A stretch of 46,037 nucleotides of DNA from a phage. Where the stretch lies: the sequence record PZ445465.1. One strand, given 5' to 3'. The notes beneath the pieces were generated by a model that saw nothing but the letters and a program-made list of their open reading frames with translations, did not search any database and was not told the origin of the DNA. Below are positions 3,144 through 43,306 of the stretch, piece by piece. The position numbers and the translations under genes are program-made. The first letter of the stretch is position 1. Each line of letters starts with the position of its first letter.

Positions 3144-4556
3144 ATGTCAAAAATTGATGCATTAAACGCCTATATACGCGACCGCGTGGCGAACAATAAC
3201 CGGGCGCTTCAGCAGCAGCGGCTTTGTGCTGGCGGGAAGAATCTGGACCAGAAACGTGAGTTCATGTGGAAGGAACTGGGCTACCCGCAGGAAATAACCG
3301 CCGAGATGTTCCGCTATGCATACGAGCGACATCCAGCCGCCGCCGCTGGCATTAACCGCATTATTAATAAATGCTGGCAGAAATACCCAGAAGTGGTTGA
3401 GGATGGCGAGGATGACAAGAACTCAACGTCGTGGGAGCTGTCCATCAACGACATGATGAAGCGCGCCTACCCGTTCATCAAGGAGGCTGACAAGCGCAAC
3501 GCCATCAACCGCTATTCCGCTGTTATCCTGCAAATCCGTGACGGCAAACAGTGGAGTGAACCGGTAGACATCACCAAAACACGCCGCATTAAAGATAAAT
3601 CCATTGTTCGCTTTATCCCAGTATGGGAAGAGCAACTCCGCGTCAGCGCATGGAATAACGATGAAACAAGTGAAGACTACGGCATGCCTGAGATGTACGA
3701 ATATCAGGAAAGCGCCGTAGAGGATTTCGATAGCGACGGCAAGCCTGAGCGTTCCGTGCAGATTCATCCTGATCGCATTATCATTCTGGCAGAGGGTAGC
3801 TTCGATGGCAGTATGTTCAGTGGCATCCCGATGCTACGTGCTGGCTACAACAGCCTTATCGACATGGCTAAGGTTTCCGGTAGTTCAGCAGAAGGCTTCC
3901 TGAAGAATGCCAGCCGTCAACTGGCTGTTAACTACACGAAGGACAACGTAACGCCAGCAAGCCTTGCACAGTCAATGGGTGTATCTCAGGATGAGCTTAT
4001 TGACATCATGAATGACAATATCGAGATGCTGAATTCTGGCATTGACGCTGCACTATTTAGCATGGGCGCCGAGACTCAGGTGTTATCCGTAACGCCAGCT
4101 GACCCGAAACCAACATGGGAAGTGGCTGCCAACCAGTTCGCTGCATCAATGGCGCTTCCGTTCACCGTCATTTTCGGGCAGCAAACCGGACGCCTTGCGA
4201 GTGATGAAGACAAGATGCAGGAGGCGATGACTGCCAAGCAGCGCCGAGAAACATGGGTGGATTATGTTATCTCAATGTTCGTTGAGCGCATGATTCAGTT
4301 CGGCATCGTCGATAAAGCACCGGCAAATGGCTACAAGGTTAAGTGGGACGACCTGCTTGCTCCATCAGAGCTGGATAAGGCGGAGTTGCTGTCTAAGCTC
4401 GCCACTGCGAACAAGTCGTTCTTTGATGCTGGTCAATCTGCGTTGCTTACCGTCGATGAGGCTCGCGGCATGGTTGGTATGGAGCCGATTGAACTTGATG
4501 AAAGTTATCGCGAAGACACGCCACCGGAAGATGAAAATGAAGATACTCCGGTTTAA
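3144..4556 (+). CDS. portal protein (putative)
   Basis: 470-aa ORF directly upstream of a Mu F-like head morphogenesis gene; acidic C-terminal tail; position and size typical of portal. Confidence 0.7.
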
Positions 4557-4620
4557 CGCAAGACTTCCGCAGCCGCGCATATCGCAGAGCCTGACCGACC
4601 CGTTAGGCGCTGCAACCCGC

Positions 4621-5487
4621 ATGTCGAAGATGGACAAGGTGATAACGCGCAAATATAAGCAACTCAGGACTCGTGCGCTTGAGTTGTTTCGCACCATTCC
4701 GCATAGTCAGACTAACGCAGAATCAAGCGGTCTGTATTTCTATGATTTCAGTAGTGCGCGCGCCGCTACTTTCATGGATGAGTTGCAGGCGCTGATTGAC
4801 GAGATTCTGCTGGAAGGTGACGACTTCAGTCACGGCAGGATGTGGGCCAATGTGTTCATCGGTGATGCGTATCAGGCAGGAACGCAGAAGGCCAACTCTG
4901 AACTATCAAGCCTGTCTCCGGTTTATGCCGAGCAGAGGCCTATTGCCGCGATACTCTACAGTGAGCCATATCTGAATCGGCTGCGGCTTGCGTATACAGC
5001 TGGTTACTCGGACTGGCGAGGATTGAGTGATTACTCACGCCAACAACTGGCATCCGTCATTATGGAAGGCATTGCCCGTGGTGCCAATCCTCGAGATGTT
5101 GAAGCTGATATCGTCAAGCGTGTTGATGTATCTCATAGCTACGCGAAACAGATAGCACAGACTGAAATCACCGGAACGCTGCGTCAGGCTAACAGAAGAG
5201 AAGTCATTGAGGCGCGCGAGGAATTAGGAATTGAAACGGTGATGCTGTGGCAATCGGCATTAATGCGCACGACACGCCAGACTCACGCGGCGAGACATGG
5301 AAGGTTTTACACGCCAGAAGAAATTGATACGTTTTATAGTGAAGTTGCTAACCGCAGGAATTGTCACTGTGCGCAAACTCCGGCGTTATTAATGGATGGG
5401 AAACCAGTCATTCTTGAGTCATCACAGGAAAGGCTTGATAAGCAGCGCGAGGCATGGCAATCAGCAAACAAAAAGCCCTCTAAGTGA
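4621..5487 (+). CDS. head morphogenesis protein (Mu F / SPP1 gp7-like, putative)
   Basis: start set at ATG 4621 after the portal stop; the track ORF's upstream extension overlaps portal; position and size typical of the family. Confidence 0.55.
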   Translation: MSKMDKVITRKYKQLRTRALELFRTIPHSQTNAESSGLYFYDFSSARAATFMDELQALIDEILLEGDDFSHGRMWANVFIGDAYQAGTQKANSELSSLSPVYAEQRPIAAILYSEPYLNRLRLAYTAGYSDWRGLSDYSRQQLASVIMEGIARGANPRDVEADIVKRVDVSHSYAKQIAQTEITGTLRQANRREVIEAREELGIETVMLWQSALMRTTRQTHAARHGRFYTPEEIDTFYSEVANRRNCHCAQTPALLMDGKPVILESSQERLDKQREAWQSANKKPSK

Positions 5488-5500
5488 GGGCTTGGTTTTA
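5474..5500. terminator. bidirectional rho-independent terminator
   Basis: hairpin AGCCCTC-TAAGT-GAGGGCT flanked by A-run and T-run, between convergent genes. Confidence 0.6.
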
Positions 5501-5571
5501 TCTTATGAGCATACACAGAACGAATATTATTATCGCATAGCACAATATCTCTACGACGCTGAATATTGTCT

Positions 5572-6180
5572 TTAATCATCAAGTTTCACGCCGGGAATTT
5601 TGCCTGCTGCGATGGCTTCATAAATTAGCTTAGCCTCATCCTCGCGCTTGTAATCTTGCGCTACCATTTCTAATACCGCGCAGATAGATTCAAGTACAGC
5701 CTCATGCTTCCTTTCTGCTTCTGTGCGAAATGGGATGAAAACATCCTTATTGGATGGGGTTATTGCGTAGTAAATCTCACCAGATGGTCTGATAACTATT
5801 TTTTCGCCATCAAGACCAATAACCTTGACTTTTCCCCATGACGTTCCGTTGCTGATATACTCACATTCACACCCAACTGGCGGCAGTCCTTCTCCGTTCC
5901 ATGCTGAATTTTTCGATGCTGCGAGCGCTGCTTTGTATTGCCAATAGGTTACTATCGACTCCTTATGGTCGGAAGATAATGGCGTAGCCCATTCTTCTCC
6001 ATACCAGAAATGCACAAGGCTATTGCCAGTGTGGTGTTTCCATGAGAACCCTTCGTAGTGTGGGTCATTCGTGTCCCATACGCACAGTGAACCGTCATTA
6101 TCTTGAGTAATTGACAGCGCGTTTTGAGGCCACCCACCACGCTTAGGCAATTCTTGAACTAACAGGTCGATAAGTTTCAT
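5572..6180 (-). CDS. hypothetical protein (202 aa)
   Basis: ATG at 6180 with GGAGA RBS; last gene of a leftward four-gene cassette; no recognised domain. Confidence 0.6.
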   Translation of the reverse strand: MKLIDLLVQELPKRGGWPQNALSITQDNDGSLCVWDTNDPHYEGFSWKHHTGNSLVHFWYGEEWATPLSSDHKESIVTYWQYKAALAASKNSAWNGEGLPPVGCECEYISNGTSWGKVKVIGLDGEKIVIRPSGEIYYAITPSNKDVFIPFRTEAERKHEAVLESICAVLEMVAQDYKREDEAKLIYEAIAAGKIPGVKLDD

Positions 6181-6192
6181 TTTTGTTCTCCG

Positions 6193-6408
6193 TTAATAAT
6201 TTGGCTTTACGTCTTTCATTGTTAGTGGCTTCCATCCACTTGCGATTGCAATATCAATACAATCCTCAAGCGTTTCAGCTTTTATTGGCTCACCAACTTC
6301 ACTATCATCAAATTTTCTCTGTATTTGATAGCCATCTACGACATAAAGAATCTCTACAGAACCATGTAGTGTGTGCATCGACTCAAGCCATTGCAGGTGG
6401 TAGCTCAT
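6193..6408 (-). CDS. hypothetical protein (71 aa)
   Basis: ATG 6408 with AGGGGG RBS; ATGA overlap with the upstream gene. Confidence 0.55.
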   Translation of the reverse strand: MSYHLQWLESMHTLHGSVEILYVVDGYQIQRKFDDSEVGEPIKAETLEDCIDIAIASGWKPLTMKDVKPNY

Positions 6409-6701
6409 TTTGTTCCCCCTAATGCCTTATTAACCGCAGCACGCGCATTATCTAGAGCGCGGCGCTTACTTGATGTTGTCCAGACTTTGCCGTCTGCAGA
6501 ATCGTAGCATTCAATCATTTGCTGCGTAGCAATAATCAATTCGGAAATAAGCATGTCGCGATATGCTAACTCAGCAGCAATAGCTGATTTTGAGTGCAAT
6601 GATTCAGAGCTCATGGCGCCAACATGCTGTGAATAAAAGCCACCAATTTCATCAAGGATATCTATATCCCGCTCTGCATACAGATTATTGCTGTCAGTCA
6701 T
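6405..6701 (-). CDS. hypothetical protein (98 aa)
   Basis: start moved to ATG 6701, which has a GGAG RBS; track ORF 6405..6725. Confidence 0.5.
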   Translation of the reverse strand: MTDSNNLYAERDIDILDEIGGFYSQHVGAMSSESLHSKSAIAAELAYRDMLISELIIATQQMIECYDSADGKVWTTSSKRRALDNARAAVNKALGGTK

Positions 6702-6859
6702 TTGATATACTCCATAATCTCGCATTCACGCATCTGCACCAGACTAAATGGCGCAACCACTTTGCCGCATGGGCGGATTTTGATTTGCTCAAGGCCGAAC
6801 ATTCCGCAGCGTCCGTTTTCTTTGAATTTGACCATTACCATAATTTCTTCCTCACTCAT
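6698..6859 (-). CDS. hypothetical small protein (53 aa)
   Basis: unlisted ORF MSEEEIMVMVKFKENGRCGMFGLEQ...; stop overlaps the next start as ATGA; weak RBS. Confidence 0.3.
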   Translation of the reverse strand: MSEEEIMVMVKFKENGRCGMFGLEQIKIRPCGKVVAPFSLVQMRECEIMEYIK

Positions 6860-6889
6860 CGTTTGATGTAGATACTATGCACCACCACT

Positions 6890-6920
6890 CAATCTACGTC
6901 AATAGCCATTGTGATAGAAT
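6890..6920 (+). promoter_or_regulatory. promoter region for the lysis genes: motif CAATCTACGTC plus extended -10-like TGTGATAGAAT
   Basis: motif at 6890-6900; TGTG-ATAGAAT at 6910-6920; strong RBS AGGAGG and ATG 6947 downstream; region is divergent toward the leftward cassette. Confidence 0.4.
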
Positions 6921-6946
6921 TAATCATTATTTGAACAGGAGGCAGA

Positions 6947-7225
6947 ATGAAACTATCGCAACGCGGCATGGAGGTGTTTGGAATTACCGATGCCGTAGAT
7001 ATATCGCCTTACATCACCACTGAGACAACACAGAATCAGTTTGATGCGCTGACAAGCCTTGCCACCGACATCGGCATTGACTCGTTCCGCAAATCAACGC
7101 TTCTGAAGAAACACAATCTCCGCTGCTTCTCATGTGTCGTCGCGCATTTCATCGTGTGGGGTGAGAAGACTGGCGACAAAGCAAAACGCAAGGCTGAAAA
7201 AGAGGTTTACTGGTATGGCTATTAG
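6947..7225 (+). pseudogene. truncated GH24 (T4/P22-type) lysozyme remnant, C-terminal portion only
   Basis: 92-aa ORF containing QNQFDALTSLATDIGIDSFRKSTLLKKHN, the conserved GH24 C-terminal lobe motif, but lacking the N-terminal catalytic segment; overlaps the intact endolysin start. Confidence 0.5.
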
Positions 7226-7679
7226 CAAAAACATGAAGGCGTTTCTGGATATGCTGGCGTACAGCGAGGGCACTGATAACGGGCGGCAGAAAACCAATAA
7301 TCATGGTTATGATGTGATTGTTGGCGGCTCACTGTTTACCGACTATTCCGATCACCCGCGCAAGCTGATTAGCCTGCCTAAGCTGGGCATCAAATCCACT
7401 GCCGCCGGGCGCTATCAGGTGCTGGCTAAATTTTATGATGCGTACAAAAAGCAACTGCGCCTGCCTGACTTCTCCCCCGCGTCACAGGACGCTATCGCAA
7501 TGCAACTAATCCGTGAATGCAAAGCCACCGCCGATATTGAGACTGGTCGCATTGCTGATGCTATCCATAAATGCCGCTCCCGCTGGGCTTCATTACCGGG
7601 CGCTGGCTATGGTCAGCATGAGCAGAAGCTGGATAAGTTGATTCAGGTATACAAAGAGGCTGGCGGAGCTGTGGCATGA
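7215..7679 (+). CDS. R: endolysin, lambda R-type lytic transglycosylase
   Basis: MKAFLDMLAYSEGTDNGRQKTNNHGYDVIVGG...DYSDHPRKL...WASLPGAGYGQ closely matches lambda R; start ATG 7215 within track ORF 7134..7679. Confidence 0.85.
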   Translation: MAISKNMKAFLDMLAYSEGTDNGRQKTNNHGYDVIVGGSLFTDYSDHPRKLISLPKLGIKSTAAGRYQVLAKFYDAYKKQLRLPDFSPASQDAIAMQLIRECKATADIETGRIADAIHKCRSRWASLPGAGYGQHEQKLDKLIQVYKEAGGAVA

Positions 7680-8411: not shown

Positions 8412-8555
8412 TTAAGATTCTTCCCGCTGCTTCCACATCTGTTTCAGCTGGAAATAAGCATACGCTTCATCACCATCTTTCGCATTGCGCTCCATTTGCT
8501 CACACCATGCCGATGGTTTTGGCGGCTCACTCTGCTGGCAATGTTGTTGGCTCAT
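8412..8555 (-). CDS. hypothetical small protein (47 aa)
   Basis: ATG 8555 with GAGGA RBS; overlaps the upstream gene by 29 nt; uncertain. Confidence 0.3.
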   Translation of the reverse strand: MSQQHCQQSEPPKPSAWCEQMERNAKDGDEAYAYFQLKQMWKQREES

Positions 8556-8832
8556 TAACAGATTCCTCAACCGCAGATTCAACGATGCGCACCAGTGAGC
8601 ACTCAAGATTCGGTGCATTGTAATTACCAGCCAGAAACAGAACACTGCCGGTGCTGATTAATACCTGCTTTGCGTTCGCCTGTGACAGATTCTGCACGAT
8701 GAATTGCGCTGTTTCCGTGCCGATTTTTAGCACTGCGCTGCCGTCGCTGTTCAGTGATACCGGTTGTGCTGAAGTGTCGGTAATATTGGTGTAGCTCGCG
8801 TTTCGTTGCGCGATTGTTATGTCTGTGAACAT
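8527..8832 (-). CDS. hypothetical protein (101 aa)
   Basis: ATG 8832 with AAGAGG RBS; part of a leftward cassette. Confidence 0.5.
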   Translation of the reverse strand: MFTDITIAQRNASYTNITDTSAQPVSLNSDGSAVLKIGTETAQFIVQNLSQANAKQVLISTGSVLFLAGNYNAPNLECSLVRIVESAVEESVNEPTTLPAE

Positions 8833-8833
8833 A

Positions 8834-9055
8834 TTAGCCTCTTACGTTTAATTTGATTTTTCCATCCACGTCGCGTGATGCACACTCAACAGTGATTGTT
8901 AACTTGGTGATCTCTTCGACGTCTGCATCAAGAATCAAGCGGACGCAACCACCAACTATTCTACCATCCTGATCAACAACGCGAATTTTATCATCGACTC
9001 TTTCAACGTGGAGCCAAACCTTTTCTTCATCACAGCCATTATTGAGAATTGACAT
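8834..9055 (-). CDS. hypothetical protein (73 aa)
   Basis: ATG 9055 overlaps the upstream stop (TAATG). Confidence 0.5.
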   Translation of the reverse strand: MSILNNGCDEEKVWLHVERVDDKIRVVDQDGRIVGGCVRLILDADVEEITKLTITVECASRDVDGKIKLNVRG

Positions 9056-9486
9056 TATTTAATCTCCAGTTCTTTTGCGCGAATTGCGCTGTCAATGATG
9101 TCTTGCAAATCCTGTTCGCGCGATTTATGTCCGCGCTCGCCAGCCTGTAATGCCTTCTTGATTAAGTGCTGCAATGCAGGGTTGGTGACATTCCACGCCA
9201 TGAGCACATCGTATACGTCAACAAATATACCCGGCTTAATCTCGTGCAGGTATTTGTTATCAGCCTCAGGAGCGCCAATGCAATCATTGAGGTCTTGTTC
9301 GTCGGTAATTGGCTCGCGGTATGCAATAACAACATCCCCGCGACCCTCAATCACTTCAATGCGATCAGCATAATATTTGCTTAGATAGAAAATCTCACCA
9401 GTCCTTTCTGACTTAACTACAAGATAAGCCGCGTTATGGCCAGCAAAATCATCCTCATAACCTTTCAGATATTTCCACTTTTTCAT
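9055..9486 (-). CDS. hypothetical protein (143 aa)
   Basis: ATG 9486; ATGA overlap with the upstream gene; no confidently recognised domain. Confidence 0.55.
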   Translation of the reverse strand: MKKWKYLKGYEDDFAGHNAAYLVVKSERTGEIFYLSKYYADRIEVIEGRGDVVIAYREPITDEQDLNDCIGAPEADNKYLHEIKPGIFVDVYDVLMAWNVTNPALQHLIKKALQAGERGHKSREQDLQDIIDSAIRAKELEIK

Positions 9487-9677
9487 TTCATCGTCACCCG
9501 ATTATTTTCATCAACATTAAAATTCGCACGAATCAAATCATACATGTCATTTTTAGGCATATCAGCCAGCGCCACATAGCAACGGGCAAAGTAGCGAACA
9601 TCACGGAGTGTCAGCGGCTGCCGCTTCTCCACAATGCTGGTGATAATGTCCATCGGCTCGCGTCGTGGTCTTGGCAT
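9483..9677 (-). CDS. hypothetical protein (64 aa), first gene of the leftward cassette
   Basis: ATG 9677 with AGGAG RBS, immediately downstream of the divergent regulatory region. Confidence 0.5.
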   Translation of the reverse strand: MPRPRREPMDIITSIVEKRQPLTLRDVRYFARCYVALADMPKNDMYDLIRANFNVDENNRVTMK

Positions 9678-9700: not shown

Positions 9701-9749
9701 CATCTTGACGTTTCTACATCACTTAGTCAATACTTATTGACGTAGATTG
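9701..9749. promoter_or_regulatory. divergent regulatory region with inverted motif copies
   Basis: GTTTCTACATC (9710-9720) and TTGACGTAGATTG (9737-9749, reverse orientation) between divergent gene starts 9677 and 9777. Confidence 0.4.
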
Positions 9750-18505: not shown

Positions 18506-18552
18506 TTGTTGTTTCTACGTCACTAACTATAAACGCACCATCAATCTACGTC
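18506..18552. promoter_or_regulatory. divergent promoter/operator region
   Basis: GTTTCTACGTC (18511-18521) and CAATCTACGTC (18542-18552); plus-strand TTGTTG-N16-TATAAA (18506-18533); lies between divergent gene starts 18485 and 18602. Confidence 0.45.
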
Positions 18553-18601
18553 AACAGGAATATGCTAAAATCATGCTAATCAAAAAACAGGAGATTTGAG
18601 C

Positions 18602-43277: not shown

Positions 43278-43306
43278 TTGACGTAGAAACATCATTGATG
43301 TAGATT
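43278..43306 (+). promoter_or_regulatory. sigma70-like promoter TTGACG-N17-TAGATT overlapping motif copies
   Basis: TTGACGTAGAAAC (43278-43290) and GATGTAGATTG (43297-43307); GAGGG RBS and ATG 43337 downstream. Confidence 0.45.

Follow-up and report, generated by a model that had tools for sequence, protein, structure and literature searches.

A leftward four-gene cassette of variable content between the head-morphogenesis and lysis genes of a small siphovirus

Genes and control elements of the cassette

The window, by which we mean the whole 46,037-nt stretch of DNA analysed here, covers nearly all of the genome of a small siphovirus that belongs to the Skatevirus cluster. Over positions 5300-7300 its nearest relatives are the Escherichia phages Bas78, Bas79 and Bas80 of the BASEL collection (95-97% identity), and about 150 Salmonella, Escherichia and Shigella phages match this region in part only. 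Bas77-81 appear in the BASEL paper as small siphoviruses, 46-48 kb in size, that depend on O16-antigen. From the left, the region holds a portal gene; a Mu F-like head-morphogenesis gene that ends at 5487; four minus-strand ORFs (5572-6859) running against the direction of the virion genes, exactly where the earlier note on this DNA had placed them; two lysozyme-type ORFs (from 6947); a holin; and an Rz-like spanin. Nucleotide composition sets the cassette apart, at a GC content of 0.44 (lowest in the 71-aa gene, 0.39) versus 0.51 in the flanking core genes. All four genes are annotated as hypothetical proteins in Bas79, where the other minus-strand genes are RusA, a methyltransferase, ParB, SSB, exonuclease VIII, a helicase and further non-virion genes, so that the cassette occupies the same strand as the RusA/methylase/ParB and replication clusters.

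The four genes form a single leftward operon that sits at a fixed place in the phage backbone, an expression slot delimited on one side by a conserved control region in common with the lysis genes and on the other by a bidirectional terminator in common with the head genes. Translational coupling, proposed earlier for the cassette as a whole, is apparent as ATGA overlaps where the first ORF meets the 98-aa gene (6698-6701) and where the 98-aa gene meets the 71-aa gene (6405-6408); the 71- and 202-aa genes are instead separated by a 12-nt gap with GGAG, the ribosome-binding-site junction GGAGAACAAAA (6181-6192, minus strand) ahead of the 202-aa ATG. The lengths first given for the last three products (98, 71 and 202 aa) stand. 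That of the first is in all likelihood too long: the 53-aa ORF (6698-6859, minus strand; PHROG 21280) probably yields a 47-aa protein that begins at M7 (6841). We prefer this start because GAGGA lies 8 nt 5' of M7, because the whole 47-position profile of PHROG 21280 aligns to residues 7-53 (E 9.4e-33), because conservation among 27 distinct relatives begins at M7, and because the predicted transcription start leaves a leader of just ~8 nt ahead of M1. A choice of starts is also present at the 98-aa gene (6405-6701, minus strand), where a longer, 106-aa ORF begins at 6725; the shorter form is favored because GGAG lies 8 nt upstream of its start at 6701 and no SD sequence precedes the longer one. 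The 71-aa gene (6193-6408, minus strand) and the 202-aa gene (5572-6180, minus strand; PHROG 7798) both encode acidic proteins.

All four ORFs are real genes under purifying selection. In comparisons with relatives, the 47-aa gene has a dN/dS of 0.12 (n=29), the 98-aa gene 0.15, the 71-aa gene 0.02 and the 202-aa gene 0.08, values that exclude spurious ORFs and settle in the affirmative a doubt raised when the cassette was first described, namely whether its ORFs stay coding in relatives. The products are soluble and mostly acidic. No transmembrane segment was detected in any of the four (maximum 19-residue Kyte-Doolittle mean 0.5-1.2), where holins, antiholins, spanins or membrane superinfection-exclusion proteins would have at least one such segment or a signal peptide. 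Scans of the four proteins against Pfam-A, NCBIfam and PADLOC gave nothing over noise, PDB sequence searches with the single proteins and with three family profiles gave nothing of note, and the known anti-defence proteins represented in Pfam or the PDB (such as Ocr, ArdA, Lar, Gam, and anti-CRISPRs with solved structures) show no similarity to them. The initial impression that none belongs to a recognised family was essentially right, the only assignments being PHROGs of unknown function and, for relatives of the 98-aa protein, the uncharacterised family PF27050. A full-text literature search for the sequence motifs and family accessions returned no paper. A PDB sequence search did produce a borderline local similarity between the 53-aa ORF and ribosomal protein uS8/S15a (E 0.023), which we take to be chance.

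The downstream limit of the slot is an intrinsic terminator (5473-5493) whose hairpin lies over the Mu F-like stop codon. It is called on both strands, as the earlier note had it, with a strong fold on each (-14.5 / -14.9 kcal/mol, z -3.8 / -3.7) and a U-run on either side, and it closes the head operon, which runs rightward, as well as the leftward cassette. An Rfam search of 5200-7400 returned just one match, a sub-threshold Trp-leader at this terminator region.

At the upstream limit, the motif copies of the divergent promoter region originally described are clear, and the promoter itself amounts to a weak match. A sigma-70-like candidate on the minus strand (6874-6902; -35 TTGACG at 6902-6897, 17-nt spacer, -10 CATAGT at 6879-6874) agrees with the consensus at 9 of 12 positions in a consensus scan; it is the sole promoter-like match facing the cassette, in a region where such sites are no more frequent than chance. 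Its -35 coincides with one copy of a conserved motif, TTGAYGTAGAT, that occurs here as an inverted pair (6863-6902; copies at 6863-6873 on the plus strand and 6892-6902 on the minus strand). The window contains 14 copies of this motif versus 1.8 expected, a count reached in 0 of 100 shuffles. Perfect copies and most one-mismatch copies are intergenic, 5' of gene clusters and oriented toward the downstream genes, and a few one-mismatch copies are intragenic. Counting from the lysozyme start, the inverted pair is fixed at -84/-55 in 32 of 35 close relatives, regardless of which gene comes first in the cassette. An extended -10-like element, TGATAGAAT (6912-6920, plus strand), was read by eye and missed by the scan; it is a candidate promoter for the rightward lysis genes, and would then stand back-to-back with that of the cassette.

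Gene turnover within the slot

Comparison of 69 related viral loci, fetched via the Mu F-like protein, reveals how freely the content of the slot changes between the same flanking genes. The interval from the Mu F-like gene to the lysozyme ORF, delimited in 72 loci that have both genes, ranges from 214 to 2461 nt and holds none to six genes, and its minus-strand ORFs fall into 35 clusters. In the shortest case (locus L024, 214 nt) no cassette gene is present and the lysis genes remain; in two others (L033 and L034, 443 nt) the first small ORF stands alone. Given a slot that may be empty or filled to ~2.4 kb, and 35 ORF clusters to fill it, the cassette genes are both dispensable and shuffled. 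A member of the 202-aa family is found in most loci, at 37-100% identity, and the 71-aa gene in 6 of 72. Two phages, Bas80 and Shigella phage Sf11, carry an HNH endonuclease in place of the 71-aa gene, and a metagenomic relative has an IS605 TnpB element inserted at the same control region. The cassette of the window is itself a mosaic: its 98-aa gene resembles that of Bas80 (97%) but matches the Bas79 version in the C-terminal half only, and its 71-aa gene is that of Bas79 (100%) and is missing from Bas80.

Because related phages put different genes into the slot, we regard it as an ordinary hypervariable accessory region. This designation, first proposed in the earlier note, is supported by the variation from none to six genes between constant flanks, by the low GC content, by the lack of structural family matches, and by the presence of a corresponding locus (in Salmonella phage Akira, see below) in a published accessory-gene screen; the check that the note had suggested, presence or absence in related phages, has thus found a cassette that varies and that some relatives do without. 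Each of ten alternative cassette genes of the relatives either falls in a PHROG of unknown function or has none. Against Pfam they yielded weak matches under the gathering cut-off, from one representative only, and no recognised counter-defence gene was found among the representatives in PHROGs or Pfam.

Turnover of this kind could in principle be driven by the mobile elements themselves, the cassette being selfish or near-neutral cargo of little benefit to the phage that homing endonucleases and recombination at the junctions keep in motion. The HNH endonuclease and TnpB insertions are consistent with such a process, as are the strongly mosaic content and the low GC. We nevertheless consider it unlikely, given the strong purifying selection on all four genes, the persistence of the 202-aa family in phages of many genera, its conserved motifs still varying synonymously, and the retention of the 47-aa gene in 32 loci (~80-96% identity).

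That first gene is the best-conserved member of the cassette; its product is limited to this phage cluster, is basic (pI 9.0) and has one invariant cysteine. Together with the divergent arrangement of cassette and lysis genes around one conserved control region, these properties might suggest regulation of lysis, whether of its timing, in an antiholin-like manner, or through control of the divergent lysis promoter by the 47-aa protein. Such a role is very improbable in our estimation: the products lack the transmembrane segments that an antiholin-like function would lead one to look for, none matches a DNA-binding family, the motif of the control region also stands at the heads of other operons genome-wide, and L024 has its lysis genes and no cassette.

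Returning to the accessory-region reading, the sequence at gene boundaries offers an indication of how the exchange might proceed. The 25-30 nt ahead of the 202-aa gene (GGAGAAACAAAATG followed by ATGAAACTTATCGACC) show conservation of the nucleotide sequence whatever gene lies upstream, with the consequence that unrelated upstream genes end in ...GETK. The same junction sequence precedes the 71-aa gene. Conservation extends into the 202-aa gene itself, where codon identity at conserved residues is 0.84-0.88 over codons 1-18 versus ~0.6-0.75 elsewhere in the family. These conserved junctions look like recombination linkers, and we infer that cassette genes are swapped by homologous recombination at such short stretches. 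Exchange would take place at the ribosome-site junction GGAGAAACAAAATG together with codons 1-18 of the 202-aa gene, and at the half of the 98-aa gene that encodes the invariant C terminus.

The 98-, 71- and 202-aa protein families

The 98-aa protein has 260 relatives, most with a precomputed match to PF27050 (Phage_P22_Y8K6), a model that the Pfam copy used for our own scans did not include. Within this family the C-terminal ~40 aa are invariant and are joined to several unrelated, swappable N-terminal halves. The N-terminal type found in the window recurs in T5-like Klebsiella phages, in 68-kb Escherichia phages of the Bas98 type and in Vibrio phages, always amid small early-region hypotheticals. 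The name of PF27050 appears to be taken from P22 orf78, and alignment of our family profile with orf78 (hhalign probability 84%, E 7.5e-6, over the C-terminal 43 columns) suggests that the two are remote homologues. P22 orf78, uncharacterised itself, adjoins ral in the early-left (PL) operon.

The 71-aa family is by comparison narrow and sporadic (26 relatives/clusters). The structure model of this protein is poor (pLDDT 56) and gave no fold match; a HicB-like antitoxin fold was considered and dropped, no structural match to HicB/UPF0150 domains having been found.

The 202-aa family is both very large and modular. The protein of the window matches PHROG 7798 over its full length (residues 1-202, E 1.1e-50), a word-indexed search identified 2992 homologues, and an exhaustive search returned 2289 clusters at 50% identity. 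Where their source is recognisable, all derive from phage genomes or phage-sized contigs, and the phages concerned infect Enterobacteria, Pseudomonas, Vibrio and Aeromonas. Alignment separates four invariant or nearly invariant segments (residues 1-18; ~85-108, with WNGEGLPPVGCECE; 151-160; and 187-202, with IAAGKIPGVKLDD) from the three variable blocks between them. Synonymous differences persist in the conserved segments, indicating that these are constrained at the protein level. In structural terms the protein is soluble and has three parts: residues 19-80 make up a variable N domain, residues ~105-150 a Tudor/SH3-like barrel and residues 154-191 a helical hairpin. Among 172 parsable members we distinguished 20 types of the N block, 34 of the barrel and 55 of the C block, which occur in 101 combinations. 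This distribution suggests three swappable modules mounted on a constant scaffold that would consist of an N-terminal helix, a linker with WNGEGLPPVGCECE and a tail with IAAGKIPGVKLDD.

An AlphaFold model of the 202-aa protein has moderate overall confidence (pLDDT 71.5); it shows a five-stranded barrel and a helical hairpin, and its N domain is badly predicted. Its middle module superposes on solved Tudor-type domains, which identifies that module as a Tudor/SH3-like beta-barrel; a Foldseek search of the model against viral predicted structures matched uncharacterised phage proteins only. A SUKH (SMI1-KNR4) assignment for the N module was rejected, as it rested on one match among 23 members, with E 0.11 and 12.8 bits versus a cut-off of 27. 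Longer members of the family carry additional modules that have no Pfam domain, and a Pfam scan of 23 members and 10 long members detected no known domain fused to the family.

The usual upstream partner of the 202-aa protein would be the 98-aa protein. An apparent grouping of the two as one family proved to be a clustering artefact, caused by ORF extensions and one read-through fusion, and does not reflect homology. In a metagenomic contig the two are joined as one 290-aa protein (P0044), which may be either a true fusion or the result of a lost stop codon.

The genomic settings of these families raise two further possibilities. Four temperate or unrelated phages (Serratia phage Eta, Pseudomonas phages Medea1 and phi1, and Pantoea phage PdC23) have a homologue of the 202-aa protein that lies in or adjoins an exonuclease VIII/bet/erf block, a setting that is an early recombination or accessory region; in Eta the homologue is directly 5' of exonuclease VIII. 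The 202-aa protein, perhaps with the 98-aa protein, might accordingly modulate DNA ends or recombination, either as an inhibitor of a host nuclease (RecBCD, for instance) or as an aid to the phage exonuclease VIII/annealase pathway, a specific sub-case of host takeover. It fits this idea that the P22 region to which orf78 belongs also contains the anti-RecBCD genes abc1/abc2, and that Bas79 has no annotated Gam-like gene yet possesses exonuclease VIII and SSB. In the present phage and in Klebsiella myovirus IME346, however, the gene is distant from the recombination genes and adjoins head genes; the cassette is missing from some relatives; and there is no similarity to Gam, Abc2 or solved nuclease inhibitors. 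On balance a recombination role seems improbable.

Proximity to head genes raises the second possibility, that the proteins are head-associated, either as assembly helpers or as proteins packaged and injected in the style of T4 internal proteins, with the N-terminus of the 202-aa protein as a targeting signal. The cassette adjoins the portal and Mu F-like genes; the 98/202 pair appears again in another genus, in IME346, as an opposite-strand two-gene insert between portal and head protein; the 71-aa protein has a homologue, gp19 of Salmonella phage 9NA, in another opposite-strand cassette that adjoins a portal gene; and the first 18 residues of the 202-aa family are almost invariant, as a signal might be. 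The direction of transcription is nonetheless opposite to that of the virion genes, the cassette is missing in relatives that have the same head genes, and the temperate-phage homologues belong to early recombination operons. No cassette protein matches a structural or assembly family in PHROGs or Pfam, which also bears on the question, posed with the first description, of whether the homologues would turn out to be such proteins. We therefore judge head association to be quite unlikely.

Proposed role and known counterparts

The reading we prefer is that the cassette encodes accessory, non-structural, shuffled binder proteins, to which we assign a probability of roughly 0.6. Host RNA polymerase would transcribe the operon along with the other leftward clusters of DNA-metabolism type, and not with the virion genes; the timing of its expression is suggested by the strand, by the promoter-like sequence and by the settings in which distant homologues lie. 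The products would act as stoichiometric protein binders of factors belonging to the host or to rival phages. Counter-defence or anti-competitor activity is the likeliest driver, a proposal that we advance tentatively. An anti-defence role, also envisaged in the earlier note, is a plausible guess. According to the BASEL paper, Bas77-81, of which Bas78-80 carry near-identical cassettes, are notably vulnerable to RM systems and to Old; this RM sensitivity argues against a strong anti-restriction function in the Bas78-80 cassettes.

Accessory regions have been defined as places between core genes where variable genes concentrate, and 200 accessory genes, drawn from 200 top-scoring accessory regions, have been screened (Silas et al., bioRxiv 10.1101/2023.04.06.535777). 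The list of that study includes two genes of Salmonella phage Akira (MK599416.1), QBZ71463.1 (orf20) and QBZ71465.1 (orf110). Both map to the interval considered here (locus L005), orf110 belonging to the 98-aa family; neither is among the named conditional-lethal or counter-defence hits of the paper or its follow-up. The resemblance between our slot and the regions in the screen lies in small variable genes (~50-100 aa) between core genes that are non-essential and horizontally exchanged, the difference being that no known counter-defence gene is recognised at this locus. Since counter-defence and host-takeover genes are repeatedly found in accessory regions, a well-delimited slot and its alternative cargo amount to a practical list of candidates. 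The genes themselves were already deposited as hypotheticals in near-identical phages, and the locus had been sampled by a published accessory screen.

Three further systems invite comparison. The accessory genes of the P22/lambdoid PL operon (ral, orf78, abc1/2 and ea genes) share with the cassette the likeness of the 98-aa family to P22 orf78 and the location of 202-aa homologues in the equivalent exo/bet/erf region of temperate phages, whereas the cassette of the window sits amid late genes. Morons are independent promoter-gene-terminator units between core genes of lambdoid phages. Like them, the cassette has its own promoter-like site (weak, 9/12) and terminator, runs against its neighbors and has a lower GC content than its flanks; unlike them, it takes its promoter and terminator from the conserved backbone and changes in its cargo alone, and, as this phage group appears to be virulent, prophage expression does not enter into it. 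The T-even hyperplastic internal-protein locus encodes proteins with a conserved N-terminal signal and a variable body. The similarity here is a short invariant N-terminus followed by highly polymorphic sequence, in a locus of variable content, and the dissimilarity is that the cassette is transcribed opposite to the virion genes and has homologues in temperate early operons. The organisation of the cassette stays within these known kinds of phage genome and adds no new mechanism.

The most interesting element, and the most useful lead, is the 202-aa family itself, very large, found in phages only and shuffled combinatorially through freely recombining modules; its target, once found, could explain a widespread part of phage dark matter. 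We consider one more specific version of the binder reading, though with considerable doubt: that the 202-aa family, usually paired with the 98-aa family, constitutes a combinatorial recognition system, in which a constant scaffold presents three swappable binding modules. Phages would reshuffle these modules at the conserved linkers and so retarget them to host immune proteins or to proteins of rival phages, and the family might then represent a counterpart, on the phage side, of polymorphic toxin/immunity systems.

The cassette slot and its genes in other phages

In Escherichia phage Bas80 (locus L002, 2864-3349) and Shigella phage Sf11 (locus L016), the position held in the window by the 71-aa gene (6193-6408, minus strand) is occupied instead by an HNH endonuclease gene, flanked by the 98-aa and 202-aa genes (6405-6701 and 5572-6180 in the window, minus strand), which suggests that homing-endonuclease traffic passes through this slot. 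A metagenomic relative (locus L081) carries an IS605-type OrfB/TnpB gene with a Cas12f1-like TNB domain (1428-2519), an insertion that separates the lysozyme gene from the 47-aa gene and so lies within the divergent control region. The pair formed by the 98-aa-type and 202-aa-type genes is found again on the opposite strand in Klebsiella phage IME346, a myovirus of another genus (gp49-gp50; locus L082, 3720-4495), with the portal on one side and a head protein on the other.

A recurrent 11 nt motif and a second leftward cassette

The window contains 14 copies of the 11 nt motif TTGAYGTAGAT, against 1.8 expected, among them those at 6863-6873, 6892-6902, 9737-9747, 18544-18554 and 43278-43305; the motif is often partnered at a spacing of 17-30 nt by the variant TGACGTAGAA. 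Gene clusters lie downstream of the perfect copies and of most one-mismatch copies, which occur in both orientations. Because it contains a -35-like TTGAC, the motif could serve as a promoter element or as an operator bound by a phage regulator.

Directly past the lysis genes, four to five small hypothetical genes form a second leftward cassette (8527-9677, minus strand), which is built in the manner of the 5572-6859 cassette: start and stop codons overlap, and GC is 0.46. It has a motif copy of its own at about 9710-9721, and is probably a further accessory slot.

Reading frames flanking and opening the cassette

Two consecutive lysozyme-type ORFs (6947-7225 and 7215-7679) overlap by 11 nt. 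The first encodes 92 aa and matches Pfam Phage_lysozyme only over model positions 55-114 of 125, in the C-terminal half, so the catalytic N-terminal portion seems to be missing; every close relative nevertheless keeps this ORF, at 89-99%. The second, of 154 aa, has a match to endolysin PHROG 90; phage NX263 carries a counterpart with the annotation glycoside hydrolase family 104.

For the Mu F-like gene, the longest ORF (4327-5487, 386 aa) has its start codon within the portal gene; in relatives the product is annotated as 317 aa, from a start equivalent to 4534 (4534-5487), and the 386-aa ORF matches the PHROG from residue 68 onwards.

Residues 20-50 of the cassette's first ORF (6698-6859, minus strand) are similar to eukaryotic/archaeal ribosomal protein uS8 (S15a) in its N-terminal region, aligning IRPCGKVV...VQMRE with IRPCSKVI...VMMKH (E 0.023, PDB), a similarity probably due to chance.
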